NCBI GenBank assembly: GCA_021390615.1
Contig: JAJEJU010000023.1
Location: 356,686-420,685 of the forward strand
Origin: Rhodanobacteraceae bacterium ZG21-1
GTDB taxonomy: Bacteria > Pseudomonadota > Gammaproteobacteria > Xanthomonadales > Rhodanobacteraceae
Length of the DNA: 64,000 bases
Reading direction: 5' to 3'
In this document: positions 19,127 through 64,000 of the stretch, one piece after another
Numbering within the stretch: position 1 is the stretch's first letter
Layout: each line of letters starts with the position of its first letter
Translations under genes and position numbers: made by a program
The notes under the pieces: generated by a model
The model's input: the letters and a program-made list of their open reading frames with translations, nothing else
What the model was told of the DNA's origin: nothing
Databases searched by the model: none

Positions 19127-19281
19127 GCGCCCAGTCTGGCGGGCGGCGCGGTGCGGCCCGGCACGCCGGCGCCGGCTGGGCGCGTAGGAAAGCGCCGCCA
19201 CCGCCGGTCGGGAGACGGCGCGGCGGATCAGGTCGCGAACGGGATAGCCGACGGGACGCGCTCGCGCGCCCCGTCAGCGGG

Positions 19282-41216: not shown

Positions 41217-41292
<76 letters not shown>

Positions 41293-42039: not shown

Positions 42040-42094
42040 TCCCCGCCGTCAACCCGAAGCAGACATCACAAATATAGACTGGAGAGTCGTACGC

Positions 42095-42475
42095 ATGGCC
42101 TCGGACGAGATTCAAGCCTTGAAGTTGGCGCTCAGCGCCGCCTCCTCCCGTGGAGCCCCCCATCGCACTTCCTACTTCATTGCATCTAGTGATGACGAGT
42201 GGGTCGTTTATGTTGAGGCCTCACTGAGTTTCCGCATCAGTCAATCAACGGGAATGCTGATTCCCGACGATCAACGTCTGGATGCCGCCGAGGCACTGAG
42301 CATTGCTCGCGCCTATGCCGTCGATCATCAATTGAGATGGGAGCCGGCGTTTTCGCTCGAGCCGACACGCAGCGGTTGGAGAGTAGGAGCCCGCCAGAGT
42401 CAGTTCGGTGGGCAGCTCTCCATTGAGGTTTGCTCCGACGGTCGCGTCTTAGAGCATCGAGTGAACCCCAAGTAG
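42095..42475 (+). CDS. Hypothetical protein (island cargo)
   Basis: It is a 126-aa ORF with a GGAGAG ribosome-binding site and lower GC. Confidence 0.4.
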   Translation: MASDEIQALKLALSAASSRGAPHRTSYFIASSDDEWVVYVEASLSFRISQSTGMLIPDDQRLDAAEALSIARAYAVDHQLRWEPAFSLEPTRSGWRVGARQSQFGGQLSIEVCSDGRVLEHRVNPK

Positions 42476-42608
42476 TCAGTCCGACAGTTAGGGCGTCTGG
42501 AAGTGTTAGTTGCTCGGGTGGATAAGAACGCCAGGCGCGCTTCCGACCCGAAGCGTACAAGACCGAGATGTATCTTGATGGCCGATCAATCGAGCATGGA
42601 AATCGACG

Positions 42609-43079
42609 ATGGTGACGCAGTCTGAGGCCATTGCGGCCGTGGATCTGGCATTTGGCTCAACGCCCAAGCCCGATCACTTCACGAACTACACCCATTGCGA
42701 AGAGTGCGCCGAGCACGACGAGCTGCTTAGGAACCGCACCCGAGAAACGCTGGCCATCCAAGATGTCGGGAATCCCGGCTGGGAGCCGCTGTGCTTCTCA
42801 AGCCCTGAAGGCATCGCGTTCTACATGCCTTCGCTGGCTCGCCTGGCGTTTGCAGAGCCAGCTTATGGCTATGACTGGTACGGCGAGCAGTTGCTGTTCC
42901 ACCTCTATTCCGGTGGATTGAACAATGAGCTCTACATGTACTGCAACGCAAAGCAGAGAGAGGCCGTTGCAATCCTCATCGGGGCGATGATCGAGTTAAA
43001 ATTCGCTGACATCGAATCAAGTGCCAGCGAAGATGAGTTCCTCCGCGCGCACGAAATTTGGTCGTACGGTAGGTCTTGA
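42609..43079 (+). CDS. Hypothetical protein (island cargo)
   Basis: It is 156 aa and contains HCEECAEHDE. It has lower GC. Confidence 0.4.
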   Translation: MVTQSEAIAAVDLAFGSTPKPDHFTNYTHCEECAEHDELLRNRTRETLAIQDVGNPGWEPLCFSSPEGIAFYMPSLARLAFAEPAYGYDWYGEQLLFHLYSGGLNNELYMYCNAKQREAVAILIGAMIELKFADIESSASEDEFLRAHEIWSYGRS

Positions 43080-43204
43080 CGAGCAATCCATCTGGTTGCG
43101 GAACGTTCCTTTTGACTGCGCCTGCAGCCGGTCGGCGCAACACGCCATAGATACCTGTTGGCCAATATCAGCGACGTGGGGCATACATCACAACGAGACA
43201 CCGA

Positions 43205-43903
43205 GTGAAAGCCATCCTTGAAATCGCGCTCCTTCTCGGAGCCGCCATCTCCGCAGCCCACGCAAGCCCAGCGCCAACCAATCAGCCTCAGGTGGGGTAC
43301 CAGGTGCCGGCCTCCTGGAAACTGCTGAAGAACGGCGGTCCTGACGACAAGGATCGCACGGTGATGTACGAGGTCCTGAAAGGCGCAGATTCCGGCGATC
43401 ACCCCACCGTGATAATCAAGACCCACGCGGTACCGCCTGGCCTTCGCGCGGACGACGTCGATGTTGCCGAAGTAGCCCGACAGGTCGTTCCGTCCGGCGC
43501 ACCAGTCAGCGATGTCCACGACGGGCCGAATTGGAGAACCTGCGTCTTTCTCGGTCACGTCGACAACGCCAAGATCGTTGCTCTCTATCGCATCGGCCTG
43601 CAGGATGGCGAAGCCGTGGAGGCGGTGTTTATTTTCCCCCTGCCCAATGGCAAGCCCGAAGAGCTTGCCCTGCTGACCGTCGACGGTCAGGCTGACGAGC
43701 AGGGCCGGACAACCGGTGTCTACGCACCGCTGCAGAGCACGTACGAGATGATTTCGATATTCAACGATTTCACGAAGACGCTGACCATCAACGGCAAAAC
43801 GTCTTTCCACGCCAGGGCGGTCATGGCCAAACCAACGGAGAAGCCCACTGCGGTCTATCGCTGGATCGACTCCCCCGCCAGTTCAGCTTCTACCGGCGGC
43901 TGA
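43205..43903 (+). CDS. Secreted hypothetical protein (signal peptide)
   Basis: It has an N-terminal signal peptide MKAILEIALLLGAAISAAHA with an AHA-SPA cleavage context. It is 232 aa with no motif. Confidence 0.5.
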   Translation: MKAILEIALLLGAAISAAHASPAPTNQPQVGYQVPASWKLLKNGGPDDKDRTVMYEVLKGADSGDHPTVIIKTHAVPPGLRADDVDVAEVARQVVPSGAPVSDVHDGPNWRTCVFLGHVDNAKIVALYRIGLQDGEAVEAVFIFPLPNGKPEELALLTVDGQADEQGRTTGVYAPLQSTYEMISIFNDFTKTLTINGKTSFHARAVMAKPTEKPTAVYRWIDSPASSASTGG

Positions 43904-43969
43904 TCCTTGTCCTCAACGCTTACGATACCCGCGGCCATTTAATACACCGCCGTGGCGAGAGACTCGACC

Positions 43970-44404
43970 ATGATTCCTAGTGACATCGCTGAAGAACTGA
44001 CGCTTCGCTTCTCCGAAGCGTCGAAGGAATGCGACAGATCGCTTCGGGTGGTGATGACTCACCAAAGCCTGGGCGAAGTGAAGGTTCTTGGCAAACTGGT
44101 GGCCGACTTCATGGGGCACAGCTATCTGAACATACTCAAGCCCATCTGGGCTGCTCATCCAGAGCTCGAACCGATAGAAATGAAGGCGCCCTATAAGCCA
44201 CCTGTGGCGGAGCTCGCTCCCGAATCACGTGAGGCGCTTCAAGCGTTCCTGGCGGCAGCCCGATCCAGCATCGAACTTGCGAAGCAGCATATTCCCGAGG
44301 ATGAGCAGAAATCCTTATTTGCCTACGGCGGCATGGATGAAGTCGTCAAGGCTACCGAGGCGATCGCGGACTTCTTGGCGAACCCGCGCTTTCGGGACTC
44401 ATGA
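43970..44404 (+). CDS. Hypothetical protein (island cargo)
   Basis: It begins MIPSDIAEELTLRFSEASKECDRSL... and is helical. It has lower GC. Confidence 0.4.
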   Translation: MIPSDIAEELTLRFSEASKECDRSLRVVMTHQSLGEVKVLGKLVADFMGHSYLNILKPIWAAHPELEPIEMKAPYKPPVAELAPESREALQAFLAAARSSIELAKQHIPEDEQKSLFAYGGMDEVVKATEAIADFLANPRFRDS

Positions 44405-44461
44405 CGACGCACAGCCATGTCCGTTTCGTCCCAATGCGGAGAGGCTTCAAAAGGGAATGAC

Positions 44462-44740
44462 ATGACCGGCCACAACGACAGCCAGCTGATGGATCAGGGA
44501 AAGCACTTATTGGGCTCGACACTCACACATCGAGCATGGACGCCGGCGCATGCCGATGAGGATCATGACCATTGCACGCTGTGCTGGGCCAAATTTTCGA
44601 ATCTCGGCGCTCCGCGCGAGCTGAAGTCTGGATTTTGTACCTCGGACGGCCAGCACTGGGTTTGCCGGGAGTGCGTGGACCATTTCAAGGCCCGCTTTCG
44701 GTGGCTACTGGTCGACGCCATGGATGTGCGCGCTTCTTGA
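44462..44740 (+). CDS. Small Cys/His-rich (zinc-ribbon-like) hypothetical protein
   Basis: HDHCTLCWAKF...CTSDGQHWVCRECVDHF suggests a C4/C2H2-type metal site. An AAGGGAATGAC ribosome-binding site lies upstream of the ATG at 44462. Confidence 0.4.
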   Translation: MTGHNDSQLMDQGKHLLGSTLTHRAWTPAHADEDHDHCTLCWAKFSNLGAPRELKSGFCTSDGQHWVCRECVDHFKARFRWLLVDAMDVRAS

Positions 44741-45547
44741 GCTGTCCGCTTCCGCCCCGATGCAGACCCTGGCGATCACTTTGAAGCACATGAACGGACT
44801 GGCTGAACCCTTGGTTCGCGGCCATAGATCTGTCTTGAGCCGTTGTACTGGCGCAGGAACGTAGATAGCCATCAAGGCCCGATGGGTGATGCCTCGCATG
44901 GCGGGCCGGCCGAACCCATCGCGTGCGGCCGTGGTGGCGGCGCCTCCATTGAATGGATGAACAGCACCGCGCAAGTAGCGAACGCGCCGCTTACTTGAAG
45001 CAAGCCCCAGCAACGACGCCCCTGACCGGCCGGCGCCCGCGCTCATGCATCACTGGAAGCATGGCTCATGAAGGTCATGGTGCCGCAACATCAGGCTGCC
45101 AACCTTCCGATCGTTGTGGGATGGCGCTGTCGGTGATCGGCGAGCCTGTCTTCGCTCGCGTCCCGATGCGCCCCGGATCAGATCCGTCTCCGCATGCAGT
45201 TCTTCTTCTCTACCGTGCTCAGACTGAAGCGCGCACGCCGGAAGCGCAGCTCCTCTCGCGCCATCTTTGCCAGGGCATCTTCCACAGGCAAGCCCGCCAG
45301 CGCGGAGCCGGAATGCACCAGCCGATATCCGTCGAGATTCACGATCCAGCGCTTCACTGCTCGCGCGTGAAGGCTGCAGAACATTGGAGTGCGCTAAGCT
45401 TGAGGCTGGATGAAGTTCATCGCGAGGGGATCCCGGCCATACGAATTGAAATTATTTCGATGCGTTCTTTGCATTGAAAACCGGGATCGCGTCCAATTGC
45501 ATTAGATTAATCAGGCCAAGCTCTTTGATTTCCCAAGAGGATAAATC

Positions 45548-45898
45548 ATGTCCGAAACTCCACTACCGCCCGTACCGGCGGCACTCCGTGAAGCACTCAA
45601 GAACTATCCGGAATACCTGAGCCGCTTGCAAGATACGCTTAATACCCTGATTCGCGAACCAGCCCCTGGCGTCGATCCTTTTGAGCGGGCAGTCTGGCTG
45701 CTGGACGGCCAAATCGAGGCCTTCTATCACGAAGCGCAATCCGAACTGAATGCCGCCCGGGCCGGCGGAGATGCCAGGACTGTCGAAGCCGCAAAAGCCA
45801 AATCCACGTTAATGATACAAGCCGGCTCAAAAGCTTCGTGGATTGCAGATAAAGACCTTTCAGACTATATCCGCGACCACCGGAGGGCATTCTCATGA
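45548..45898 (+). CDS. Putative epsilon-like antitoxin of zeta-toxin TA pair
   Basis: It is a 116-aa helical protein. Its stop overlaps the toxin start (TCATGAGT, ATGA coupling). It has an AGAGGA ribosome-binding site, and its upstream region has TTGCATT direct repeats. Confidence 0.5.
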   Translation: MSETPLPPVPAALREALKNYPEYLSRLQDTLNTLIREPAPGVDPFERAVWLLDGQIEAFYHEAQSELNAARAGGDARTVEAAKAKSTLMIQAGSKASWIADKDLSDYIRDHRRAFS

Positions 45899-47196
45899 GT
45901 CTTGTCGGAGAGATACTCCCGGTTGACCCGATGGAACGCATGAGGAAGTCGCGTCTTCCGGAGGAAGAGCACAGGCAGGTTTTCAGGGATCAAGTCCTGA
46001 ATTCAAGCGGATTTCCGCAGGCCCAAAAAGTAGATGAAAGCAGCCAGCCCAAGGTCATCATCCTGGCCGGACAACCTGGCGCCGGCAAGGGCAACCTTAC
46101 GGCTGCCGCACAGTCCGAGCTTGCATCCAAGGGAGGAGCGGTAACCATCGATCCGGATGAGCTTCGGCGATTTCACACCAACGTTGAAACATTCCGCGAG
46201 AAAAGCCCTTATACGTGGGCGGACGACACTCAGCTGGATGCAAGCGCCTGGGCCAAGTCTCTACGCGACGAAGCCATCAATGGCAGGAAGAATGTCATTC
46301 TGGACACCACGCTCGGCGAGCAGCAAAAGGCCATTGAACTGGTCGAAATGTTTCAGAAAAAGGGCTATGCGGTCGAAATACGAGCGATGGCCGTACCACA
46401 GAGCGAGAGTGAGCTCGGCGTCGACAAGCGCTTCACTGACGGCCTCGTCAGAGAAGGCTTTGGTCGTTATGTGCCGGAAAAGCTCCGGGACGACGTCTAT
46501 AAAAACCTGCCGTCCGTCCTCGACGCCGTACATGACGAATCGCTGAAACCGGAAAGTCGCTTCAAAGAAGCTATCAAAATTAGCGTTTATGACCGCGGAA
46601 GCTTTGAGGCAGACCGCCTTCACCCAACGCCTCGATATAGCCAGATAGCCACCGAGGCTCGTGATGACAAACCTGGCCAGGCCATGGACAAGGTCCGCAC
46701 GGATCGAATGAATGACCCGCAGGTCGCAAGCCAACTCAGAGATGGCTGGGCGGCTCAAAAAGATTGGCATGCAAAACTAGAAACCAACCTGCCGACCTTT
46801 GATAAGGTCAAGCAGGATTCCAGAGCTCCCTTACTCCAGGAATTGGCTCTGGAAAAGGTGGCCGACAGTGTCAACAGGCGCTTTGAAGAAGCCGAGAGGC
46901 ATCTTTCCTCCGTGAAGGAAAGGCAATCACCATCAGAAAGCCCATCGCAACCCAAGAACGAACTGCTGGAAAGAGTTCAAAACATGAGGGAATCGATGCA
47001 GAGCGGCCATTCGGTCTCTGTGAGCGACATTCATGGCCTTGTCGATCCCGTGCAGGGAGCGCAACTGCATAGTCAATCTCAGAGCGCCGTGGATTTGCAG
47101 CAAACCCTTTCAAAGCCAAGTCCGGATCGTTCGCAGACGCCCGAAGTTCACGTAACGCCGGAAACCCCGAAAGATCAGTCGAATGTTCGCAAGTGA
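45895..47196 (+). CDS. Zeta-toxin family P-loop kinase (PezT/zeta-like) with long C-terminal extension
   Basis: A Walker A motif (ILAGQPGAGKGNLT) is followed by TIDPDELRRFH (catalytic Asp context) and VILDTTLG, matching the zeta/PezT UDP-GlcNAc kinase core (about 270 aa). An additional ~160-aa S/Q/E-rich low-complexity tail follows. It has lower GC. Confidence 0.7.
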   Translation: MSLVGEILPVDPMERMRKSRLPEEEHRQVFRDQVLNSSGFPQAQKVDESSQPKVIILAGQPGAGKGNLTAAAQSELASKGGAVTIDPDELRRFHTNVETFREKSPYTWADDTQLDASAWAKSLRDEAINGRKNVILDTTLGEQQKAIELVEMFQKKGYAVEIRAMAVPQSESELGVDKRFTDGLVREGFGRYVPEKLRDDVYKNLPSVLDAVHDESLKPESRFKEAIKISVYDRGSFEADRLHPTPRYSQIATEARDDKPGQAMDKVRTDRMNDPQVASQLRDGWAAQKDWHAKLETNLPTFDKVKQDSRAPLLQELALEKVADSVNRRFEEAERHLSSVKERQSPSESPSQPKNELLERVQNMRESMQSGHSVSVSDIHGLVDPVQGAQLHSQSQSAVDLQQTLSKPSPDRSQTPEVHVTPETPKDQSNVRK

Positions 47197-47958
47197 TCCA
47201 TAGGATTCAGTGACCATTGGGCGCGCGGAGATCTTCCGCGCGCCGCTTTCATCTATGCAGTGCTCTCTTTGACCGCAAGGCTTTTGAGCTGCACTCGAAG
47301 CCGAGCCGCCTTGGGCGGAAATTTTCGTCCGGATTTAAGCCAGCTGCGAGATCCGCCGCCCACTGCCTGGATCAAGTCGCGCTGCGCCTGGCGGCTCGCC
47401 CCGGGCGAGGATTCCGGCTCGTCTTCAGTGGATATCAACGGATCGAGCGAGCATCGCGCTCGAACTCGCATGGATGCCCAGATCGTGCCCGACCGTTCTT
47501 TCCAACCTGGGCAGGACCGTTCGGCCGGACGGCGGCAACCATCGCCCATGAAATCGCCGATGAATATGCCGCTGCCCTGCCGATCCCATCTCTGTGCGAA
47601 AGCGGCGCCCAACCCCAGCAAGGCCAGAACCGCAGCGAGTACCGATGCCAGGCCCGATTGGCGGTGCCGGCCGGCGCGGTTCAACCGGCTTGCCGGCAGC
47701 ATGCTGTCTTGCACAGTTAGCCGCGACGATTGCGGCGAGACTTTCGCCCAGGCGGAGCGCTGCATCCTCGATCTCCGCGACCAGGGGGTTCGCCGACATG
47801 CACACCGACGATGCACGATCCGGGACTCGCTGCCTGTGCGCGGCATTTGCCGCCGCGCCACGGCACCACAACACGTGCCGTGTATCGGCCCAGCCAAGCG
47901 CATCGTCCTCGGCGCGCCTGGCGCTGACTCCGCCCCCGACCTGTCCGTCGCCGATCCG

Positions 47959-49122
47959 ATGACACATGCTCCCCGCATCGCCATCGTCGGCGCCGGCCCC
48001 GGTGGCTTGACCCTGGCCTGCATGCTGCAGCAGGCCGGGCACTCCTTCACCCTGTTCGAGCTAGACGGCCACGCCCAGGCACGCCCGCAAGGCGGCACGC
48101 TCGACCTGGACCAGGAGATGGGACAGCTTGCGCTTCAACGCGCCGGGCTGATGGCCGCATTCCGTCGCCGGGCAAGGTACGAGGACCAGGAAACCCGTCT
48201 TTTCGACAAGACCGGCAAGCTGCTGTTCGAAGACTGCGGCGCGCCCAGCGACGAACGTCCCGAAATCGATCGGGCGCAACTGCGCGAACTGCTGCTGGAG
48301 GGCTTGCCGGAAGCCTCGATCCGGTGGAACCACAAGCTCCGCGAAGTATTGCCTCGCGCCGACGGCAAGTACGACCTGGTGTTCGACAAGGGCGTCTGCG
48401 ACGGCTTCGACCTGGTCGTCGGCGCCGACGGCACCTGGTCGCGCGTGCGTCCGCTGGTTTCTTCGTATAGCCCGCAGTACACCGGCGTCACCTTCATCGA
48501 ATTCGGCATAGACGATGCGGATCGCCGGCACCCGGCGCTGGCCCGCGTGGTAGGCCACGGAACGATGTCCGTGCTGGGAGACGGCATGGGCCTGTTCGCC
48601 CAACGCAACGCCGACGCCCATCTGCGCGTCTACGCGACCTTCCGCGCGCCCAAGGAATGGGCCAGCAGCACCTTCGACTTTTCCCGCCCGGCCTCGGTGC
48701 TGGCCGAGCTCAAGGCGCAATGCAGCGGATGGGCGCCGCTATGGCATGCGCTGATCGACGCCGGCAACGATCAGCTGCAGGCCCGCCGGATCTTCGCCCT
48801 GCCGGTAGGGCATCACTGGCTGCATCGACCAGGCATCACCCTGCTCGGCGACGCCGCCCACGTCATGTCGCCCTATGGAGGCAACGGGGTGAACATCGCC
48901 ATGTTCGATGCCGCCGAACTGGGCAGGCGATTGACCGAGCAGGCGGACTGGTCGGCGGCCGTCCAGGCCTACGAGCGCGACATGTTCGAACGTGCCCGCC
49001 CCTATGCGCTGTTCGCGGCCGAAGGCGTGGCGATCGCGCTCTCGCCGGCTTATCTGAAGCACGAAATCGACGCCCTGGAGAGAAGGCGCGCACGGCGAGC
49101 GGAACCGAGCACGCCGGCCTGA
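47959..49122 (+). CDS. FAD-dependent monooxygenase (TetX/UbiH-like flavin hydroxylase)
   Basis: It has a GxGxxG Rossmann motif (RIAIVGAGPGGLTLACML), DGxxS (VVGADGTWSRVR) and a C-terminal GDAAH motif (LLGDAAHVMSPYGGNGVN). It is convergent with the NRPS-PKS operon end. The start was reset to the ATG at 47959 inside the track ORF 47260..49122. Confidence 0.85.
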   Translation: MTHAPRIAIVGAGPGGLTLACMLQQAGHSFTLFELDGHAQARPQGGTLDLDQEMGQLALQRAGLMAAFRRRARYEDQETRLFDKTGKLLFEDCGAPSDERPEIDRAQLRELLLEGLPEASIRWNHKLREVLPRADGKYDLVFDKGVCDGFDLVVGADGTWSRVRPLVSSYSPQYTGVTFIEFGIDDADRRHPALARVVGHGTMSVLGDGMGLFAQRNADAHLRVYATFRAPKEWASSTFDFSRPASVLAELKAQCSGWAPLWHALIDAGNDQLQARRIFALPVGHHWLHRPGITLLGDAAHVMSPYGGNGVNIAMFDAAELGRRLTEQADWSAAVQAYERDMFERARPYALFAAEGVAIALSPAYLKHEIDALERRRARRAEPSTPA

Positions 49123-49257: not shown

Positions 49258-50511
49258 TCAGCTTGTCCGGGTCGCCTCCACCGGCGATACGCGCGAGGCG
49301 CGCATGGCCGGCGCCAATACCGCGCCCTGCCCCAGCAGCAGCAGCAGCAGCATGCCCAGCAGGACGTAAAGCGGAGACAGGCGCTTCATCTCGAAGGCGC
49401 CCATCATCCATTGGTTGAGTCCGACGGCCAGCAGGGCGCCGACGATCACGCCGCCCGCACTGATCAGGAAATTCTCCAGCAGGAAGTAATGCAGGATGCT
49501 CTGCTGAGTCGCTCCCAAGGCGCGGCGCACGCCGATCTGCTTGCGGCGCTGGCCGACCCAGAAACTGGTCAGGCCCACGATGCCGGCTGCCGTCACGATC
49601 AGCAGCACGGCGCTGACGGCGCCCATGAAGGTGGCGATGCCGATATCGGTCTTGTAAGCCTGCGCGCGCACCTCGGCGAATGTACGCACACCGCGGCGGT
49701 CCGGGATCACCCGCATGCGATTGGTGCGGAACAGCGCCTGCGGCACGCTCTTGCTGATCGCTTCCAGTTGGCCCGGCTGCGCCCGCACCAGATAGACATT
49801 GCGCTCGTCGGTAAGCTGGATCGGCGTCAACACGACATAGTCGCTGAATGCGTCGGTCCAGCTGCCGGGCCAAGGCACCTGCAGCTGCTCGACCACGCCG
49901 ATCACCGTGCTCGGCGTGCCGTTCTTGATCAGATAAATCGACTTGCCGAGGATGCTGCCGCCCGGATACAGGCGATCCGCAAGCGCCTTCGTGACGATCA
50001 CCGCCGGCGTGGGAACGAAGGTCTTGGAGTCGGCAGTGGCCACTTCGTCCGAGCGGAAATTGCGCCCTTCCAGCAGCCTGGCCCCCAGCGTCGCCAATGC
50101 ATGATCGTCGGTGGAGTACTGGGCCGCCCTGGTGATCGCCTTGTCGGTCGCCGGGTCCAGCCTTACGCCGGTCACCCGCCCGCCCACTCGCAGCGGAAAG
50201 GAATCGCTGAGCGTCGCGTCGCGCACGCCGGGCAGCTGGCGAATCGCCGCCAGGTCGGTGCGGATCAGCGCAGGCACGGCGTCGTTGCTGGCGCCGACCC
50301 AGCTGTTCTCGATCGCCAGCAGGCCGCTTTCTTCCACCCCGGAGGGGCGCGATATCCGATCGACCCGCTGCTTGATGATAAACAGGGCGTTGCAGACGAC
50401 CGCCAGGGTCAAGGCGATCTGCAAAGTGATGAGAATGGTGCCGGCCTTGTGCTTGCGCAGCGCGGCAAGGATCGGCTCGATCTGCAGGGTCACGGTTTGC
50501 CAGGTCATCAA
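49258..50511 (-). CDS. FtsX-like ABC transporter permease (MacB/LolCE-type topology)
   Basis: It has an N-terminal transmembrane helix (ILITLQIALTLAVVCNALFII), a large periplasmic domain and three C-terminal transmembrane helices with a conserved RRALGAT segment (RKQIGVRRALGATQQSIL). Confidence 0.8.
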   Translation of the reverse strand: MMTWQTVTLQIEPILAALRKHKAGTILITLQIALTLAVVCNALFIIKQRVDRISRPSGVEESGLLAIENSWVGASNDAVPALIRTDLAAIRQLPGVRDATLSDSFPLRVGGRVTGVRLDPATDKAITRAAQYSTDDHALATLGARLLEGRNFRSDEVATADSKTFVPTPAVIVTKALADRLYPGGSILGKSIYLIKNGTPSTVIGVVEQLQVPWPGSWTDAFSDYVVLTPIQLTDERNVYLVRAQPGQLEAISKSVPQALFRTNRMRVIPDRRGVRTFAEVRAQAYKTDIGIATFMGAVSAVLLIVTAAGIVGLTSFWVGQRRKQIGVRRALGATQQSILHYFLLENFLISAGGVIVGALLAVGLNQWMMGAFEMKRLSPLYVLLGMLLLLLLGQGAVLAPAMRASRVSPVEATRTS

Positions 50512-50518
50512 CGCATCC

Positions 50519-51832
50519 TCAATTCGACTTCAGCTGCCATGCCGGCTGCACTTGTGCCGCCCGCCAGGTGGGATAGAAGGCCGCCAGCAGCGTGGCCACG
50601 ATCGCGACCAGCAGGGTCAGCGCGATCAGCACCGCGTCGAGCCTGACCAGCCTGGCGATGTTCGGATCGAAGACCAGACCAACCCCGAGCATGCCGGCGC
50701 CGGTCAGCAGCAGGCCCAACAGGCCGCCTGCCGCACCGATCGTCCCCGCCTCGATCAGGAATTGCTTGTAGATGTCGTTGCGCGATGCGCCCAGCGCGCG
50801 CCGCAGGCCGATCTCTCCCGATCTGCGCAGGCTCTTCGCCAGCAGCAGGCCGATCGTGTTGACCAGGCAGATCAGCAGGAAGCCCAGCGACACCAGCATG
50901 GACATGCGCGATTCGGGGGGTACCACGTGCCGGTCGGCCAGCCACCGGGTCACATCGCTCAAGCGCACGTTCGGCGCCCAGTGGAAGCGTCCCGCACGCT
51001 GCTGTTCGGCGGCATAGCCCTGCAGGAACTGGCGATAGGCATCCGCCTCGGATGCGCTGGGCAGCTCCGCCCAGAACGCGATCCACACGCACTCCGAACG
51101 CAGAAAGTCCTCCCATCCGCTGCCGGTATCCTGATTGCACGCCGTATCGCCGGCAGTCGGCATCTGCAGATCGATCGCGCGGGTGAACGGCACGAACAAC
51201 TGCACCGCATCGCTGAAGCCCGAGGTGTTCACCGGATCGAAGAACAGCGGCTGCGGGTTCCAGGTATCCATCACGCCGGTGATCCGATAGTCCCGGCCGT
51301 CCAGGTTGATCGTGCGCCCGACGCTGTTGGCGCCGCCGAACAGGCGCTGATTAGTGTCGCGGCCGATCACCGCCACCGCGGCGTGCGCCTGATCGTCCGC
51401 CGCCGTCCAACCGCCGCCGTATTCGAAGGGGATATCGAACATCGCGAAGGTGTCGGCGTAGGCCGCATAGCTCAGCGGACGGAAGGGCAGCCGGTTCGGA
51501 TCGCTGGGCACCAGAGACGGCGCGATCGGGAACAGCGCGGTCTGGCGCGGCGCCTTGTGCGCCAGCATCAGGGCCGTCGCGTCCGCATAGCTCAACGCAT
51601 CCGGCGGATCGCCCCCGTTCTCGGCCGCCCTGGCGGGGCCCCAGTTGTCGATCTGGGGCGCGAACAACTGCGCCGATTTCTGCGGGATCGGATTATTGGA
51701 GGTGGCGCGAAAAACCGCATAGCTGGTGATCGAAGCCGATACGCCGAAGCCCATGGCGATAATCATCAACAACGTCAGTGCCGGGTTCCGACGCAAACTG
51801 CGCAGCCCAAGACGGGCGTAATAGGCAAACAT
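50519..51832 (-). CDS. FtsX-like ABC transporter permease (paralogue)
   Basis: It has the same architecture: LTLLMIIAMGFGVSASITSY..., a periplasmic domain and ...EIGLRRALGASRNDIYKQFLIEAG... It is 8 bp upstream of the paralogue, and no ATPase gene is adjacent. Confidence 0.8.
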   Translation of the reverse strand: MFAYYARLGLRSLRRNPALTLLMIIAMGFGVSASITSYAVFRATSNNPIPQKSAQLFAPQIDNWGPARAAENGGDPPDALSYADATALMLAHKAPRQTALFPIAPSLVPSDPNRLPFRPLSYAAYADTFAMFDIPFEYGGGWTAADDQAHAAVAVIGRDTNQRLFGGANSVGRTINLDGRDYRITGVMDTWNPQPLFFDPVNTSGFSDAVQLFVPFTRAIDLQMPTAGDTACNQDTGSGWEDFLRSECVWIAFWAELPSASEADAYRQFLQGYAAEQQRAGRFHWAPNVRLSDVTRWLADRHVVPPESRMSMLVSLGFLLICLVNTIGLLLAKSLRRSGEIGLRRALGASRNDIYKQFLIEAGTIGAAGGLLGLLLTGAGMLGVGLVFDPNIARLVRLDAVLIALTLLVAIVATLLAAFYPTWRAAQVQPAWQLKSN

Positions 51833-51927: not shown

Positions 51928-53571
51928 TCACAGCACCAGCTCGCTGCAGCCGTACAGACGCTCGGACTCGATGCCGTTCGAGGCGCAATACTCGACGAAA
52001 CTATTGGACTCGAGGATCTGGATGCTGTCGGGCTGGTACTGCAGGCCCATCAGCGCGCGCAACCACGGCTCCTGGCCCATCGCATAGACGTAGGCGCGCG
52101 ACGGCTTGATCTTCGCCACCGCATTCCTGGCCCGCTCGAAATTCGAGCCCGACAGCCGGCGGGACTCGTCGTCCTTGCGGCTGGGCTGCCGATTCAGCAG
52201 CGGCCCGTACAGCCAGGTCAGCGGCGCGCCGTGGCATTCCATGCCCAGGAACACCACGTCGACGCGACCGAGCACGCCGGCGAGATGATCGAAAATCCTT
52301 TCGTCGACGGTGTCCGAGTCGGCCATGAAGAGCAGCCGCTGCCCCGCCAGTTCGACCAGCAGGCAGTGCTTGCTGAGCACGTCGAGGCCCGAGTGCTCGC
52401 CGATGAACGGCAGGCTGGTCAGCGAACCGCCCGGCAGCTCGATCGCGTCCAGTGGGTCGACCACTCGCACGCGGCGGAAGCCCAGGGTCGCGAGCATCAG
52501 CTTCAAGGACGGATCGGCGACATTGCCGGCATCGTTGCGCGGCACGATCACCTCGCCCACGCGCTCGCGCAGCTGCAGCAGCATGTCGGGCACCAGATGA
52601 TCCTGATGGCCGTGCGTCAGCACCAGATAATCGATCTTGTCCGGCAGGTCGACGAAGGTCAGCGTGGCCTCCTGCTGGTCTCGCTCCCATGCGGTCAGCG
52701 CATCGATCAGGATGGCCACGCCGGCCGCCTCCACCAGTACGCAGGCATGACCGAAATACCTGATGCGCAGGCCCTGGCCGTCGAAGTTCGGCGCATTGCG
52801 CCCCGGCGCCTGGTTGGTGAAGAAACGCTCGAAGCCGCCTTCGTCGACCAATTCCGGCGGCAGGCTGGCGCGAATCTCGGCGGCGCTCATCGGCTGGTAG
52901 CGCAACTTCGCCAGCAGATCGACCCGCTCGTCTAGGAACGGCATCTTGAGCACCACCCGCTCGGGCGACTTCAGCAGCGGCGTGCTCATGAAAAAAGTCC
53001 GCTCGATCGAGCGCGTGGTATGCACGCAGATTTCCTGCAGCTCGGTGGTATGCGCCCGCCAGCGCTGATACGACAACTCTTCGAGCACGCGGATCTTCGG
53101 GTGGCTGTTGATGTCGTAGGTCAGCTCCACCAGGCCGCGCAGCGAGTCGGGAACCTGGGCGTAGAACTCGTCGAGACAGAAGCCCTTGGCGCCGCCCTGC
53201 AGCTTGAGGTCGAACTCCTGGAAATCCTGGGCGATTTTCAGCAGCTCGCCGCCGCGCCCGTGGATGTCGTCGATCAGCTCGCGCACCGCCGGAATGTCGC
53301 TCATCGCCAGGCAGACGAACGGCCCACCGAGCATGTCGGGATCTTCGGCGGCGGCCACATGCACCGACGGACTGGCGACGAAGGACTTCAGATTCGGCAG
53401 CTGCCGGTTGGCCAGATTCATGGCGTACTGCAGTGGCGGCAGCAGATGCGGCCAGGTCGGCCAGCCGCACATCAAGGGTTCTATCTTCACGTCCGATTTC
53501 AGATACCACTGATCCTTGCCCGGCGAAGCCACTTCGCCGGACGCCGTCGTCTCACCGCTTACGCGCTTCAT
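51928..53571 (-). CDS. MBL-fold metallo-hydrolase with ~300-aa N-terminal extension
   Basis: The C-terminal half has the metallo-beta-lactamase motif set (...[15 protein letters not shown]...[11 protein letters not shown]...FIGEHSGLD...). The N-terminal 300 aa match no recognisable domain. A GGAGA ribosome-binding site is present, and its ATG overlaps the NRPS stop by 4 bp. Confidence 0.8.
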
Positions 53572-56500
53572 GCCTGTCTCCTGTCTACATTTCTGACCAG
53601 CTGGATCAGCGTGGATTCGAAGCTTCTCGCCAGCTTGCGCAGCGTCTCTTCGTGATGCAGCTGATCGCTGTATATCCACGAGCAGCGCAGCACGTCGTCC
53701 ACGAAAACCGTCTGCAGTTCGATGTCATTCCTGCGCATGGCGCGGTCCGGCAGCACATAGACCGGGCCGTCCGGCAGGGGGATTCTTCCCAGCAGGCCGG
53801 CCGCCTGCGACGGCGCCTTCTGCTCGCCCTGGTGGTTCAGACACAGGGCACAGGCCTGCCAGTCCATGCCGCGCTCGAAGCGCTGCGCGGCGCTGGCCCA
53901 GTAGGCCAGTCCGGCCGCGTCCGCACGCTCGCCCTGGACGACGATCTGCCGCACCAGCGTGGCCAGGTCGCGCGGGCCGCGGAAATCGATCGTCACCGGC
54001 ACGCCGGCGGTGAACCAGCCGACCGAGCGCGAAAGATCGCCCTGCAGATGCAGTAGTTCGCGCCCGTGGAACAGCTGCTCCACGGCGACGGCGTCGTGCC
54101 CCGTCCACAACTGGATCGCCTGCGCGAGTGCAATCAGCAGCAAGTCTTCGACGCGTATGCCCAGCTGGCTGGCGGCGGCCATGCAGGCCTGCGGCGAAAT
54201 CTCCGGCGCCGATACGACCAGCCACTGCGTCGACGCGACGGTGTTGTTTCCGGCCGGATGATCCTTCGGCAGCGGCTGCTGCAAGGATGCCTCGCGCGCC
54301 GCCCCTTCCAGCTCGGCCTGGCCTTGTGCGGTGGCGAAATGCTCGGCGACCGCGCGCGCCCAGGCCGAGAAGCTGGTGCCCGGCGGCGGCAGCTGCGCCG
54401 CAGCGCCTTCCTCGCACTGCAGGCAGAGCTGCTGCAGCTCCTCGGCAAGCACCGGGTACGACAGCACGTCGTTGGCGAAGTGATGGATCGCCAGCACCAT
54501 GCGCTGCGGCCGGGCATCGCCGTAGTCGAACAGCACCGCCTTCAGCAGGCGGCCCGACGCCAGATCGATGTCGCGCCGCAGCTGATCGATCTCGCCGGCC
54601 ACCCGCAACGACAGCTCCGGCTCGGCGACGGCCGAGAGATCGACAACGCTGCACAGGGCTTCCGCAGGCGTAGGCGCCGGCCCTTGTCGTTGCTGCCATG
54701 ACCCGTCGCTCTCGGACACCACCAGGCGCAGCGCGTCATGGCGCGCGACCAGGGCGTGCAGCGCCTTGCGCAGCGCCTCCGCCGACACGCGCCGGCTCAA
54801 TTCGTAGTGGTAGGTGTTGGAGAGTATCGATATCTCGTCCCGCCACAGGGCGAGCATGATGCGTTGCACCGGCGTCAGCGGCACGCGGTCGTCCTGCACG
54901 CCCTGCTCGACGGTCGCCGATGCGGGAGCGGCTTCGGCGACCTTCACCATCGCCGCCAGCTCGGCGATGGTCTGGTAGCGGAACAAGTCCTTGGGCACGA
55001 ACACCATGCCTGCCCGCTTGGCCAGGCTGACCAGCTGGATCGCTGTGAAGCTGTCGCCGCCGAGCTCGAAGAAATTCTCGTCGATGCCGACCTGCTCGCG
55101 CTTCAGCAGCTCGCAGAACAGGCCCGCGAGCAGCCGCTCCTGCGCTGTTCTCGGCTCGCGCCGCGTGGCCGCTGCGAGATCCGGCGGCGGCAGCCGGTGG
55201 CGATCGACTTTGCCGTTGGCACTGAGCGGCAGGCTGTGCAGGGCGACCACGACGGCCGGCACCATATGCTCCGGCAGCTGCTCGGCCATGAACTGACGCA
55301 GCGTTGCGGGCACGGCGTCCTGGCCGGCCGCCGCCACGGCATAGGCGACCAGTTGCTTTTGTCCGGGTCGATCTTCGCGCAACAGCACGGCTGCCTGGGC
55401 CACGCTGGAGTGGCGGGTCAGACAGGCCTCGATTTCGCCCAGCTCGATGCGGAAACCACGCAGCTTGACCTGGTCGTCGGTGCGGCCGAGATAGTCGAGC
55501 CGCCCGTCGGGCAGCCAGCGCACCAGGTCGCCGCTGCGATAGAGCCGGCTGCCGGGCGCACCGAAAGGATTCGCCACGAAGCGCGAAGCGCTCAGGCCCG
55601 GGCGATTCAAATAACCGCGGGCGAGTCCGTGGCCGGCGATATAGAGCTCGCCGGGCATGCCGGCCGGCACCGGCTTCAGCGCATGGTTCAACACATACAC
55701 CTGTGTGTTCCAGATCGGCCGGCCGATCGGCACCAGGCCCTCCCGATGATTCTCCAGGCGCACCTCGTGGAACACGCAGCCGACCACCGTCTCGGTCGGT
55801 CCGTACTCGTTGACGATGCAGGCGTGCGGCGAATGCGCGAACCAGTCGGCGACGGTCGCAGCCGGCAGTGCTTCGCCGCCGACGACCACGTGATGCGCCA
55901 GATCGACGCCGCTCGACGACGACAGCAGCTGATTGAGGATGGCGAGCTGGGCCGGCGGCAGTTTCAGCAGGCTTAGTCCGCGCGGGCCGTCGGCGCCGGC
56001 GAGGGTTTCGAACTCCTCCGACTCCGGCAGCAAGGTGACCGCCTTGCCGCAGAGCAGGGGCAGGAACAGGCTGGTGACGGTGGCGTCGAAGGACAGCGAG
56101 GTACTGATCGCCGCTCCCGTTCCCTGCTCCATCTGGTAGGCGGCGGCAGCCCAGGCGGCGTAGTTGTGCAGCCCGCCGTGGGTGATCACCACCCCCTTCG
56201 GCCTGCCGGTCGAGCCCGAGGTGTAGATCACGTAGGCCGGATGCTGTGCGCCGGCTTTTGCGGGAGGCGCGCTGGCGGGCTTGCGCGCGATCGCGGGCCA
56301 ATCCAGGTCGAGCATGATGGCCCGTCCGCGATAAGCCGGCAGCCTGCCTTCGGCGGACTCGACGGTGAGCAGCACCGGCGCCAGCGAATCCTCCAGCATG
56401 AAGGAGATGCGCTGGGTGGGATAAGCCGGGTCGATCGGGAGATAGGCGCCGCCGGCCTTCAGGATGCCCAGCAGGCCGATCACCATTTCCGGCGAGCGCG

Positions 56501-58184
56501 GCACGCACAGCGCGACGACGATCTCGGGCCCCACGCCCGACCGCTGCAGGTAATGCGCGAGCTGGTTGGCCTGCTGATCCAGCTCGCGATAGCTCAGCGT
56601 GCGATCGCCGTGGATCAGCGCCGCCGCGTCCGGCGAACGCTGCGCCTGCTCCTCGAACCACTCGTGGATGCGCCGTTCGCGCGGAAACTCCATGCCGGTG
56701 GCATTCCATGCCTGCAGCAGGCGCAGCCGCTCGTCCGGATTCAACAGCTCCAGCTGTTCCAGCGGCTGCTCCGGGCGCGCGACCACTTCCTGCAGCAGCC
56801 GGCCGAAGTGTTCGACGAAACGCTCGATCGTCGGCGCGTCGAACAGATCGGCCGCGTATTCGAGGCCGCCGCGGAAACCTTCCTCGGTTTCCCCGATCAC
56901 CAGAGTCAGGTCGAACTTCGCGGTGACATGCCGCGAACCGATCAGCTCCAGCTGCAGATCGCCCAGCTCGAAGTTGCCGGCGGCGCCGCTGCGCAGTTCC
57001 ATCAGCACCTGGAACACCGGCTGGCGCGACAGGTCGCGGGTCGGCGCCAGTTCCTTCACCAGCCGCTCGAACGGAAGATCCTGGTTGGCGTAGGCGGCCA
57101 GCGCGGTCTCCTTCACCTGGTGCAGCAATGCCCTGAAATCCTTCGCCCGATCCAGCCGCGCCCTGATCGCCAGCGTGTTGACGAACAGCCCGATCATGTG
57201 TTCCGTCTGCGGGTGTGTACGGCCCGCCGTGGAGGTGCCCACCACCACGTCCTGCTGTCCGCTCCACTGCGACAGCGCCAATTGGAAGGCCGCCATCAGC
57301 AGCATGAACAGGGTGACTTCTTCCTGCTTCGCCAGTCGCGCGACGGCGTCGCTCAATGCCTTGGGCAGGACGATCGGGCAGGTGCCGCCCCGATGGCTCG
57401 GCACCACCGGCCGCGCACGATCCGTGGGCAGCTCCAGCACCTCGGGTGCGCCGTCCAGCTGCTTGCGCCAGTGCTCCAGCTGCCGGGCCAGCGCCTCGCC
57501 TTCGGAAGACCTGCGCTGCCACAGCGCGAAGTCGGCGTATTGCGCGGCCGGCTCGGCAAGCGGCGACGTCTCGCGGCGGCAGTAAGCCTCGTAGAGGCTT
57601 TTCAGTTCCCGCTCCAGCACGCCGTTGGACCAGCCGTCCGAAATGATGTGGTGCATCGCCAGCGCCAGCACGTGCTCCTTCGGCCCCAGCCGCAGCAGGC
57701 TCACTCGGAACAGCGGGCCGCGCGCCAGATCGAAGGGGCGCAGGAATTCCTGCCGCACGAAGGCCGGCAGCACGTCGCCGTCGCCTGCGGCGGCCAGCTC
57801 GTCCACGCTGCGCCGCAGAATGGAGAAATCCTCCGCGCGCCCGATCAGCTGATGCGCCTGGCCGTCCACCGCGTCGAAGCGCGTGCGCAGGCTCTCGTGG
57901 CGGCGCACCAGTTCGCGGAAGCTGTTTTCCAGCGCGTCCTCGTTCAACTCGCCCACCAGGCGCATGGCGATGAACATGTGGTAGGCCGAGCCCACCAGGC
58001 CCATCTGCTCGACGAACCACAGCCGCTCCTGTGCATACGAAAGCGGCAGCCGCTCGCCCGGCTGGCGCAACCCCTGCAGCGAACCCGCCGCCGCGCCGGC
58101 CTGCCGCGCGTTCCTGCGGCTCGCCAGCTGCTTCAACTGCTGCGGCGAAAGCTGGGCGATGCGATCTGCGATGGAACCGTTCAC
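53568..58184 (-). CDS. Non-ribosomal peptide synthetase module C-A-T plus terminal condensation-like (Ct) domain, no TE
   Basis: The C domain has HHIISDGWS (HHxxxDG). The A domain has [51 protein letters not shown] and [20 protein letters not shown]. The PCP has [15 protein letters not shown] second C-like domain with HHFANDVLS sits at the C-terminus. The protein is 1538 aa. Confidence 0.92.
53571..54887 (-). other. Terminal condensation-like (Ct) domain of NRPS (approximate)
   Basis: It spans aa ~1100-1538 ([10 protein letters not shown]...[11 protein letters not shown]...). It shows a C-domain fold signature downstream of the PCP in place of a thioesterase. Boundaries are estimated by residue counting. 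Confidence 0.6.
55185..56672 (-). other. Adenylation domain of NRPS 53568..58184 (approximate)
   Basis: It spans aa ~505-1000 from the A1 (LSYRELD) through the A10 region. The A4 segment is [10 protein letters not shown] and A5 is [12 protein letters not shown]. Substrate is not assignable by eye. Confidence 0.6.
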
Positions 58185-61100
58185 GCGTATTTCTCGCTGC
58201 TGGTGGTTTCGCTCACGGCTCGGACATCGCGGGACTGACCATCCAGCACGACGGCGGCGTCGCCCGCCTCAAGAGTCTCCAGGTAGGCGCCCATGTCGCC
58301 TTCGTCGATCTCGTCGGCGAGCTGCGCCACGATCTCTTCGGCCAGTGCCTTGACCGTGCCGCTGGCGGAAATCAGCACCTTGGGCGAGATCCGCACGCCG
58401 TACTCGTCCCTGATCCGCGAGATCACCCGCAGGGCGATCAGCGAATCGCCGCCCAGCGACATGAAGGTGTCGCTGCGACCCACGGCATCGATGCCCAGCA
58501 CTTCCTCCCACATCGCCGCCATGCTGGCCTCGAGCTCGCTCCAGCCGCTGGCGATGACGGGCGCCTGCACCGGCGCAGCCTGCAGCGGCGCCTCGGTGCG
58601 CGAAGCCGCGGGCTGCTCGTGCACCGGCGCCTCGCGCTTCCTGACCTCGATCCAATAGCGCTGGCGCTGGAACGGATAGGCCACCAGGCCCACCCGCGAA
58701 CGCCGCTCGCCGCGATGAAAGGCCTGCCAGTCGACGGCTGCGCCCAAGGTCCACAGACGGGCCAGCTGCCCGAGCAGCGCGCTGCGGTCGGACGAACCAT
58801 CGCTAGCCAGCGATCCCACGTAGGCATGCTCCGGCGCGCTGCCGAACTGCTGCCGGGCCAGGCCGGTCAGCGCCTGGCCGATACCCAGCTCGAGCCAGAT
58901 CGTCGGACTGCCGCCGGCAGCGGCAGCCAGAGCCGCCTGGAAATCCACCGGCTCGCGCAAGTGACGCGCCCAGAACGAGGCCTCCAGTGGCGCGGTCGCG
59001 CTCACCGGCGCACCGGTCAGGCACGACACATAGCGGATGCCCGGCGTCGCGTAGCGGCAGGAGCGCGCCGCCTGTTCAAGCCCGGCCATGGCCGGCTCCA
59101 TCAGGCGCGAGTGGAACGCATGCGACACCGACAGCCGGTGATGCTCCACGCCGCGCGCGGCGAGCGTGGCGGCCAGCGCGTCGATCGCCGCCGCAGGCCC
59201 GGACAGCACGCACTGCGTCGGCGCATTGATTGCAGCCACCGACAGTGCTTCGCCCAGCAGCGCCTGCACCTCGCCCACCGGCAGTCGCACCGCCAGCATG
59301 GCGCCGGCAGGCTGCTCGCTGACCAGCTGCGCCCGGCGCGCCAGCAGCGCCACCGCGTCATGCAGCGAAACGGCTCCGGAGATGCAGGCCGCGATGTATT
59401 CGCCGACGCTGTGCCCGACCACCGCGGCGGGCTTCACACCCCAATGCATCCACAGCTTCGCCAGGCTGTAGCCCACCGTGAACACGGCAGGCTGGGTGAA
59501 CAGCGTGCGATCGATGGATGCCGCCGCCTCCGTGCCGGCCGGCGCGCAGATGACGCTGCGCACGTCGAAGCCCAGGCGCTCCTGGAACAGCGCCGCGCAC
59601 TCGTCGATGCGGGCGCGGAAGTAGGCGTCCGTGTCGTACAGCGCCTGCACCGCTCCCGATCGCTGCGAACCCTGCCCCGGGAACATGAAGACCACCGGGC
59701 GATCCACATGCTGGTCGTGCACGTCCTGGGCCGCCACCGCCTCGTCGCGCAGGGCGCGGATCAGTTCCTCGCGATGCTTCGCCACCACGCTGCGCCGATG
59801 GGCGAAGCGGCGGCGGCCGCGTTGCAAGGTGTAGGCCACGTCCGCCAGATCCAGCTGCGGCCGCTCCTCGAGGTGGCGCGCCAGCGCGGCGCCGAGCTGC
59901 CGCAGCGCTTCGCCGGTATGCGCCGACAGCGGGAATACCTGGGCGGAGGGATCGGCCGCCGATGGCGCCGGCCGGGCCGGCGCTTCCTCCACCACCACGT
60001 GCGCATTGGTGCCGCCCATGCCGAACGAGCTGACGCCAGCGCGGCGCGGCTTGCCGTCGCTGTGCCAGGGCGCGTACTTGGTGCTCACGTAGAACGGGCT
60101 GGTGGGGGATTCCAGCGCCGCATTCGGCCGGCTGAAGTTCGCCGACGGCACCAGGTGCTTGTGCTTCAGGCACAGCACGGCCTTGATCAGCCCGGCCACG
60201 CCCGCCGCGCAGTCCAGGTGGCCGATGCTGCCCTTGATCGAGCCCAGCGCGCACCACTGCTTGTCGGCCGTGCCGGTGTCGAAGGCCTCGCCCAGCGCGG
60301 TCAGCTCGACCGCGTCGCCCAGCACGGTGCCGGTGCCATGGCCTTCGAGCATGCCGATGTCGGTCGGCTGCAGCTCGGCGAAGGCCAGCGCCGAGGCGAT
60401 CAGCCGCGCCTGCGCCTTGATGCCCGGCGCGGAAAATCCGGCCTTGTCGGCGCCGTCGTTGTTGACCGCGCTGCCGCGGATCACCGCATGGATCTCGTCG
60501 CCGTCGCGAAGCGCCTCGTCCAGCCGCTTGAGCACCACGATGCCGCAGCCGCTGCCGCCGATGGTGCCGGTGGCGTCGGCGTCGTAGGCGCGACAGATGC
60601 CGTCCCGCGAGGAGATGCCGCCTTCCTCGTAGATGTAGCCGCTGTCCTGGTTCAACTTGATCGACACGCCGCCCGCCAGGGCCATGTCGCTCTCGAAGGT
60701 CAACAGGCTCTGGCAGGCCATGTGCACCGCGACCAGCGAACTCGAGCAGGCGCTCTGCACCGTGACGCTGGGCCCGTTCAGGCCGAGCTTGTACGACACC
60801 CGCATGGTGAGGAAGTCTTTCTCGCCGTCGAGCGAGGTCTGGTGCCAGTTGCCCGAGTTGGATTCGATCAGCTCCTGCATGCGGGTATACAGGTACAGAT
60901 TGCTGCCGCAGCCGCCGTAGATCCCCACGATGCCCTTGTACTGCTCGGGGTCGTAGCCGGCGTGCTCCAGGCCTTCCCAGGCGCATTCGAGGAACAGCCT
61001 GCCCTGCGGATCGAGGCTGCTCGCCTGTCTCGGGCTGTAGCCGAAGAAGCCCGCGTCGAAGCGGTCGTAATCCGCGAGCGGCACGGTGGCCTTCACGTAA

Positions 61101-61277
61101 TGCGGGTTCTGGATCAGCGAGGGACTCACCCCGGCCGCGGCCAGCTCGGCATCGGACAGCTTGACGATCGAATGGCGTCCGCTTTTCAGCAGCTGCCACA
61201 ACTCGTCGACGCTCTTCGCCCCCGGAAAGCGGCCCGCCATGCCGATGATGGCAATGGCATTGGCGCTGTTTGCTTGC

Positions 61278-61285
<8 letters not shown>
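58181..61285 (-). CDS. Type I polyketide synthase module KS-AT-ACP (no KR/DH/ER)
   Basis: The KS domain has [15 protein letters not shown] (active Cys), EGHGTGT and GHLDCAAG (His/His). The AT domain has FPGQGSQ, GHSVGEY and HAFHS. The ACP has LGGDSL. The N-terminal [13 protein letters not shown] is typical of a hybrid KS downstream of an NRPS module. The protein is 1034 aa. Confidence 0.92.
58316..58543 (-). other. ACP/thiolation domain of PKS (approximate)
   Basis: It spans aa ~915-990 with GGDSL at ~945-948. Confidence 0.55.
58796..59698 (-). other. Acyltransferase domain (approximate)
   Basis: It spans aa ~530-830, with GQGSQ at ~537, GHSVGE at ~624 and HAFHS at ~722. The HAFH motif is more typical of malonyl-CoA-specific ATs (inference). 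Confidence 0.55.
59984..61261 (-). other. Ketosynthase domain (approximate)
   Basis: It spans aa ~9-434, with Cys180 in TVQSACSSS, His315 in EGHGTGT and His356 in GHLDCAAG. Confidence 0.65.

Positions 61286-64000
<2,715 letters not shown>

Follow-up and report, generated by a model that had tools for sequence, protein, structure and literature searches.

The last nonribosomal peptide synthetase (NRPS) gene of a biosynthetic operon in Rhodanobacteraceae bacterium ZG21-1 ends in a domain that belongs to the epimerization (E) lineage and not to the condensation (C) type of terminal domain (Ct). The main anomaly of this domain, here called E*, is the loss of the catalytic glutamate of the EGHGRE motif, not a change in HHxxxDG. 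The gene was found in a stretch of 64,000 nucleotides (contig JAJEJU010000023.1, positions 356,686 to 420,685 of the forward strand), which is referred to as the window. Judging from sequence comparisons, we give an even chance to the reading that E* is an E-derived, His-dependent chain-terminating domain of an end module without thioesterase (TE), and that it no longer epimerizes. The longest open reading frame (ORF) over the terminal domain, 53568..58184 on the minus strand, encodes an NRPS of 1538 amino acids (aa) with the following features:

53568..58184, minus strand: NRPS gene with the order condensation, adenylation (A), carrier (T) and E* domain (C-A-T-E*); its GTG start overlaps the stop codon of the preceding polyketide synthase (PKS) gene (GTGA), and its product is identical to protein P0028 except for M/V at residue 1
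56718..58049, minus strand: condensation domain, aa 46-489, with a canonical 10-residue motif (Pfam)
55209..56657, minus strand: adenylation domain, aa 510-992, code DATKVGEVGK (Pfam AMP-binding at 510-859 and AMP-binding_C at 917-992)
54945..55133, minus strand: carrier domain (T, or peptidyl carrier protein, PCP) of the GGDS type, PP-binding at aa 1018-1080 (Pfam)
55032-55073, minus strand: 14-residue GGDS-type carrier motif, aa 1038-1051
53571..54887, minus strand: terminal E-like domain E*, aa 1100-1538, assigned by sequence, profile, fold and motifs
54459..54485, minus strand: HHFANDVLS (E2 motif), aa 1234-1242, with HHxxxD kept
54057..54080, minus strand: EQLFHGRE, the counterpart of EGHGRE, with Glu replaced by Leu and Gly by Phe
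53820..53846, minus strand: LCLNHQGEQ, the counterpart of FNYLGQ (E7), with Tyr replaced by His

Pfam recognizes a second Condensation-family stretch at the C-terminus of the NRPS, and the terminal 460 aa alone match PF00668 with E = 2.1e-40, which is far beyond chance. An earlier note on this DNA had described a condensation-superfamily domain of about 440 aa after the PCP; this is correct, and 53571-54887 corresponds exactly to aa 1100-1538. The note's assignment of the domain to the Ct subtype is contradicted by sequence, profile and fold, which all place it in the E lineage. A single-sequence search of all Protein Data Bank (PDB) chains retrieved the E domains of PvdL (2e-38), TycA (5e-27), TycB3 (8e-26), GrsA (7e-23) and bacitracin synthetase BacC (1e-22); the first match other than an E domain was SgcC5 (4e-7), and ordinary C domains scored 1e-3 or worse. 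With a profile built from four E* sequences, E domains were found at 1e-45 to 2e-38 and the best C domain at 2.5e-9. Bit scores against 150 representative NRPSs fell into separate groups, with C domains mostly at 10-40, canonical E domains at 60-183 and E* above 300. The terminal domain also contains a sub-threshold NCBIfam match to TIGR01720, a segment accompanying E domains. In the comparison set, a GGDS motif precedes 310 E-type domains, and GGHS is the commonest form before C-type domains. Because E domains score far above C domains in both sequence and profile searches, and because a GGDS carrier stands in front, the terminal domain is of the E lineage. A neighbour-joining tree rooted on C domains and calculated without bootstrap unites the five E* in one clade, which branches at the base of the E domains.

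Other members of the superfamily fit less well. An LCL or DCL condensation domain would be expected to score well against C-like profiles, but the scores are low and the Gly of HHxxxDG is Val. Like a fungal CT domain, E* takes the place of a TE behind the last T domain, but it does not cluster with CT domains in sequence or structure and has no SHxxxD. It also does not match the description of a glycopeptide X domain, which has a degenerate motif, lies between T and TE and works with a partner oxygenase. An X-type recruitment domain was one of the outcomes that, according to the earlier note, would change its release prediction; no such assignment was obtained, and neither the glycopeptide X domain nor the fungal CT domain was among the matches of the E* profile at E <= 10.

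The active site is altered in a specific way. The earlier note had drawn attention to a variant HHxxxDG motif, and its trailing Gly is indeed changed. However, HHFANDV fits HHxxxD and keeps the catalytic second His, and the real loss concerns the Glu. The F and A at the first two x positions of HHFAND and its N are clade-specific and invariant in the four-sequence E* alignment. EGHGRE reads LFHGRE in the window, with Leu in place of the catalytic Glu. Among 279 E-type domains drawn from the 150 best representatives, this column holds E in 262, whereas all five E* have L. The Glu of EGHGRE forms an acid/base pair with the His and is required for epimerization, as established by mutagenesis of GrsA and TycA and by structures. 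The remaining motifs deviate as well. FNYLGQ has become LNHQGE in the window (LNHxG in the clade), where His replaces a Tyr present in 260 of the 279 domains; PIQxWFF has become PVQRIMLA (PVQRIxLA in the clade); and four residues are deleted at the GxGYG motif. It is by these four features, the exchange of Glu for Leu included, that E* differs from the canonical E domains of TycA (2XHG), TycB3 (6TA8), GrsA (5ISW) and PvdL.

The E* clade is rare. A HMMER search of 1.84 billion representative proteins retrieved, besides the window protein P0028, only P0035, P0040 and P0051 with more than 300 bits. A metagenome scan added one syntenic locus (L010), whose E* is 64% identical to that of the window. 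A pattern scan of 185,579 GTDB species representatives with two short E*-derived peptide motifs detected no member of the clade and only distant canonical E domains, and tblastn detected none on plasmids (maximum 33% identity). A word-indexed homologue search returned only short fragments of at most 32% identity and also missed the window protein itself. In the four-sequence alignment the three other E* are 38-41% identical to the window domain, and the motif blocks are the invariant parts. Between the window and L010, identity amounts to 64% for E* and 72-75% for the C, A and T domains; between the window and P0051 the values are 39% and 45-58%. Since the motif blocks are invariant with their odd residues fixed, and since the conservation of E* falls only a little below that of C, A and T, the pattern is best read as a constrained, altered active site and not as decay. 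The last A-domain codes differ among the members. The window and L010 share DATKVGEVGK, which we take to be Asn-like from its resemblance to the published code DATKLGEVGK; P0040 has DAWTIAAVCK (Phe), and the codes of P0051 and P0035 are of a hydrophobic type.

Position sets E* apart from most E domains. All E* are terminal, with only 0-4 residues of the protein behind them, and no DCL condensation domain comes next in cis. A docking tail of the TPSDF type, which is seen after many subunit-terminal E domains, is absent from all E*. Two members, P0035 and P0040, have the architecture C-A-T-E-E*, in which the preceding E domain looks intact (HHLAVDGVSW, EGHGRE, FNYLG). Here E* fills the slot of the DCL condensation domain that normally follows an E domain, and the intact E in front of it argues against E* being an epimerase as well as against a mere adaptor. 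The comparison set contains 17 E-type domains that lack the Glu, and all 17 have kept the His. Fourteen of them are C-terminal, compared with 51 of 262 canonical E domains (Fisher p = 1.6e-7), and eight directly follow a canonical E domain (counting P0040, whose canonical E was confirmed by sequence). A second clade, E' (P0052, P0063, P0067, P0068 and P0076), shows the same design, C-A-T-E-E'. The E' genes are the last NRPS genes of their loci and are followed in two of these loci by ABC transporter or tailoring genes. Together with P0143, the E' proteins, which are metagenomic and about 2000-2050 aa long, share the motifs xHHGR and LNHxG. The Nocardia proteins described as 'C-A-T-E-C' (PMC7413640) may equal such C-A-T-E-E' proteins. 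Another repurposed E domain may be present in P0009, a free-standing E-type protein of 495 aa with a TubC_N docking domain and the motifs HHTACDYYS and LEYHGRV.

The surroundings of the E* gene were compared among the window and related loci. On the minus strand of the window, the operon runs from an NRPS through a PKS and the E*-containing NRPS to a CmlA-type hydroxylase and two MacB/FtsX permeases:

61278..64000, minus strand: upstream NRPS (…C-A-T), A-domain code DSALVAEVWK, running off the window (Pfam)
58181..61285, minus strand: PKS module KS-AT-ACP, without KR, DH and ER, directly upstream of the E*-containing NRPS (Pfam)
51928..53571, minus strand: CmlA-type non-haem di-iron beta-hydroxylase, whose ATG overlaps the TGA of the NRPS gene (ATGA)
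50519..51832, minus strand: MacB_PCD/FtsX permease (Pfam)
49258..50511, minus strand: second MacB_PCD/FtsX permease, the final gene of the operon (Pfam)
47260..49122, plus strand: convergent FAD-dependent mono-oxygenase, FAD_binding_3 from aa 240 of the ORF

The upstream NRPS and PKS genes overlap by 8 bases (61278-61285), and overlaps of 4 bases connect the PKS gene to the E*-containing NRPS gene (58181-58184) and the latter to the hydroxylase gene (53568-53571). The chain is taken from the PKS ACP by the condensation domain of the last NRPS. A domain scan of all visible operon genes, including the convergent mono-oxygenase, detected neither a TE nor a reductase (R) domain, in agreement with the earlier note. 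L010 mirrors the window, with a CmlA-type hydroxylase, FtsX/MacB permeases and the FAD mono-oxygenase after the E* gene. The biosynthetic genes of L001, L008 and L009/L012 end with the E* gene, after which come efflux genes of the MacAB/TolC type or MFS and RND efflux genes. No TE is encoded downstream of the E* gene in the window, L010, L001, L008 or L009/L012.

The mechanism that we favour as the best reading of these data is the following. As an E domain is, E* would be fed by a GGDS-type carrier, and two-base epimerization would have been given up through loss of the Glu. From the T domain, the finished thioester would pass into the single donor-side tunnel, where His1235 would activate a nucleophile, which may be an amine or hydroxyl group of the chain itself, a water molecule or a small amine. 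The activated nucleophile would then cleave the carrier-bound thioester, so that E* would function like a terminal C or CT domain while originating from an E domain. A role in release gains strength from gene order, since the E* gene closes the biosynthetic series ahead of the efflux genes in five related loci. The release function that the earlier note had predicted therefore remains plausible, given the terminal position, the gene order before efflux genes and the E-E* slot in two relatives; what did not hold is its attribution to a Ct domain, and the macrolactam or amide-capped product of that note is a conjecture which the comparisons neither favour nor oppose. More tentatively, E* and perhaps the wider Glu-less terminal set (C-A-T-E-E') could form an unrecognized class of domains for NRPS off-loading, with E and not condensation domains as their ancestors. 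The retained His of such domains might free D- or L-terminated chains by cyclization, hydrolysis or C-C bond formation. We consider this generalization possible but somewhat doubtful.

Several points weigh against a chain-terminating E*. The window, L010, L001, L008, L009 and L012-14 all break off within the same repetitive part of the upstream NRPS; in L010, for instance, the upstream NRPS ORF covers 1179 aa and runs off the contig. Because the start of the assembly line thus lies beyond all contigs, an upstream subunit that bears a TE or starts with a C domain, or a discrete hydrolase, is possible. Since the last A-domain codes differ, the last side chain is unlikely to be a general nucleophile, and no common intramolecular nucleophile is evident. 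E* also evolves somewhat faster than its neighbouring domains. As to the lineage, the tree carries no bootstrap support, and the AlphaFold2 model shows the E-domain fold on the basis of an alignment that consists of E domains and is biased towards that fold.

Among the alternative explanations, the most probable, though still rather unlikely, is that E* is a non-catalytic E remnant. As a scaffold or adaptor, it would, for example, pass the chain to a C domain encoded upstream, and release would be left to a TE, an R domain or a discrete hydrolase outside the window. The loss of the catalytic Glu is in line with this explanation, and an inactive terminal E domain is known from LgrA (PMC10510592). 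Moreover, the upstream part of the cluster extends beyond the window and the contigs, and one E'-type locus contains a discrete type II thioesterase gene. However, a remnant would hardly keep HHxxxD and all motif blocks with fixed clade-specific residues at 38-41% identity, and a second adaptor would be superfluous in C-A-T-E-E*, where an intact E domain is already present. Also, the COM- or TPSDF-type tail expected of an adaptor is missing, and the E* gene invariably stands at the end of the biosynthetic genes, next to efflux genes or, for the window and L010, next to a hydroxylase gene with permease genes behind it.

Less probable still is that the His of E* catalyzes C-H deprotonation, either for beta-elimination of a residue hydroxylated by the CmlA-type enzyme or for Dieckmann release of a tetramic acid. 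E ancestry implies proton abstraction from an alpha-carbon, and the E* gene and the CmlA-like gene, which L010 has kept, are translationally coupled (ATGA). Furthermore, a KR-less KS-AT-ACP module directly precedes the last module in the window, L010 and L012. Such a PKS followed by the last module would yield a beta-ketoacyl-aminoacyl thioester, the classic substrate of a Dieckmann (tetramate) cyclization. However, three NRPS modules separate PKS and E* in L001, and at least two NRPS modules lie directly upstream in L008. These arrangements rule out a general tetramate mechanism and leave it as a minor alternative for the window only. A general dehydratase role is ruled out by C-A-T-E-E*, because dehydration would make no sense after an E domain. 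In addition, no CmlA gene adjoins E* in L001, L008 and L012. In hypeptin biosynthesis, Tyr or Leu bound to a carrier is the substrate of the CmlA-type hydroxylases (the characterized di-iron enzyme HynC acts on Tyr and Leu, not Asn), and Asn is hydroxylated by an alpha-ketoglutarate enzyme (PMC8252469). By this precedent, the CmlA-type hydroxylase of the window need not act on the terminal Asn. Its substrate may instead be that of the DSALVAEVWK-type module. This code, located before the PKS, is common to the window (61278-63974) and L010 (32-3571), and the related DSASVAEVWK occurs in a module of L001 (3456-10004).

It is quite improbable that E* serves as an X-like platform for recruitment in trans of a tailoring enzyme, which here would be the CmlA-type hydroxylase, to the substrate on the carrier. 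That a domain with the C/E fold can follow the last T is known from the glycopeptide X domain, and in both the window and L010 the hydroxylase gene adjoins the E* gene and is coupled to it in translation, but E* retains HHxxxD, is not followed by a TE as in T-X-TE, and has no adjoining hydroxylase in three of five E* loci. Continued epimerization with another second base, such as the His that replaces the FNYLG Tyr or, in some members, a His beside the lost Glu, has very little to recommend it. E* keeps the general E fold with its catalytic His and follows a PCP of the GGDS type, and several members have HHGR at the E4 motif, but an intact E domain stands immediately upstream in two members, the window has F and not H beside the lost Glu, and nothing after E* could use a D-configured donor. 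A Ct domain of the condensation lineage (fungal CT or bacterial terminal-C type), releasing the product by macrolactamization or amidation, would suit the terminal position and the lack of a visible TE and has amine-adding counterparts such as glidonin C13 (PMC10587159), but this lineage is already contradicted and the explanation is highly improbable.

Beyond the operon, the convergent mono-oxygenase gene is followed by a low-GC island with a zeta-toxin gene and then by rpoD. Further genes of the window are:

41217-41292, plus strand: tRNA-Met gene
45895-47196, plus strand: zeta-toxin gene
10958-12391: PurD gene

PurD belongs to a 90%-identity cluster that includes Dyella soli, which makes a Dyella-like member of the Rhodanobacteraceae the probable source, and a 50-mer taken from the end of the window matches none of the GTDB species representatives exactly. 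The G+C content of the window ranges from 58 to 72%. The island (41217-47200; 58-59% compared with about 68%) starts right after tRNA-Met, between the rpoD region and the end of the cluster, and looks as if it had integrated at this tRNA gene; in L010 its position is occupied by different genes. The FAD_binding_3 mono-oxygenase is conserved beside the cluster in L010 (15735-16913) and probably belongs to the pathway, because it is present in both syntenic loci. Its ORF in the window is about 230 codons longer than the L010 orthologue. The true start is probably near 47950, since the orthologue comprises 392 aa and FAD_binding_3 begins at aa 240. In the window (49258-51832) and in L010, the two MacB/FtsX permease genes have no adjoining gene for an ATPase, membrane-fusion or outer-membrane protein. 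A full MFP-ATPase-FtsX-FtsX set is present in L001 (14629-19293) and L008 (10799-16898), with an additional OEP in L008. The corresponding genes for the window may lie upstream of it. In L008, the E* cluster is followed at 17093-19929 by a PPTase gene, a LuxI/LuxR pair and a DUF4902 gene, which suggests quorum-sensing control of this cluster in a proteobacterial host.

How the chain is released determines if an NRPS yields a linear, a cyclic or a capped product, and this step is a bottleneck when assembly lines are engineered. Known routes that are independent of a TE include R domains, terminal C or CT domains of the condensation lineage, and self-cyclizing residues. TE-independent termination by a domain of the C superfamily is thus a known kind of release, and the E-derived variant may be undescribed. 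The literature searched, whose partial coverage makes this weak evidence of novelty, described neither the E* clade nor C-A-T-E-E architectures nor terminal E-type domains without the Glu. If the proposed function is correct, an epimerase-derived terminal domain behind a working E domain would represent a separate evolutionary solution, a new functional branch of the C superfamily and a new logic of TE-independent release in Proteobacteria. It could also provide a compact, possibly D-specific off-loading part. The automated labels "Condensation" (Pfam) or "Epimerization" would mislead predictions of stereochemistry and product for clusters with E*.

With respect to known systems, E* differs from canonical E domains also in its placement: it never precedes a C domain or docking tail and stands behind a normal E domain in two members. 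The inactive terminal E domain of LgrA resembles E* in being of the E type, located at the C-terminus of a subunit and, as we infer for E*, non-epimerizing (PMC10510592). However, the LgrA domain stands behind an achiral Gly, and the chain passes from it to LgrB, whereas E* has no visible downstream partner and sometimes lies beside an active-looking E domain. The glycopeptide X domain (4TX3) likewise has a C/E fold after the last carrier and a non-canonical role, but its site is degenerate, a TE follows, and it recruits P450s. In E*, which shows no sequence similarity to X, HHxxxD is intact, and no domain follows. Fungal CT domains (TqaA, 5DIJ) and glidonin C13 share with E* the terminal position after the last T and the C-superfamily fold, and the His-dependent thioester cleavage proposed for E* would be a further parallel. 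The closest described analogues appear to be the TE-less C-A-T-E end modules NbtE and MbtF of nocobactin and mycobactin biosynthesis. NbtE is the last module behind a PKS (PMC7413640), and both are credited with release by lactamization of the terminal N-hydroxy-lysine (PMC7413640, PMC9846915). The order NRPS-PKS-NRPS, the E-type end and, as far as the assembly line is visible, the lack of a TE recur in the window, which is a likeness of the described architectures. The E domain of NbtE is, however, described as a working epimerase (D-Lys), with release by the side chain of the residue itself, whereas E* lacks the Glu and the terminal residues of its members (Asn-like, Phe, hydrophobic) offer no evident common nucleophile.

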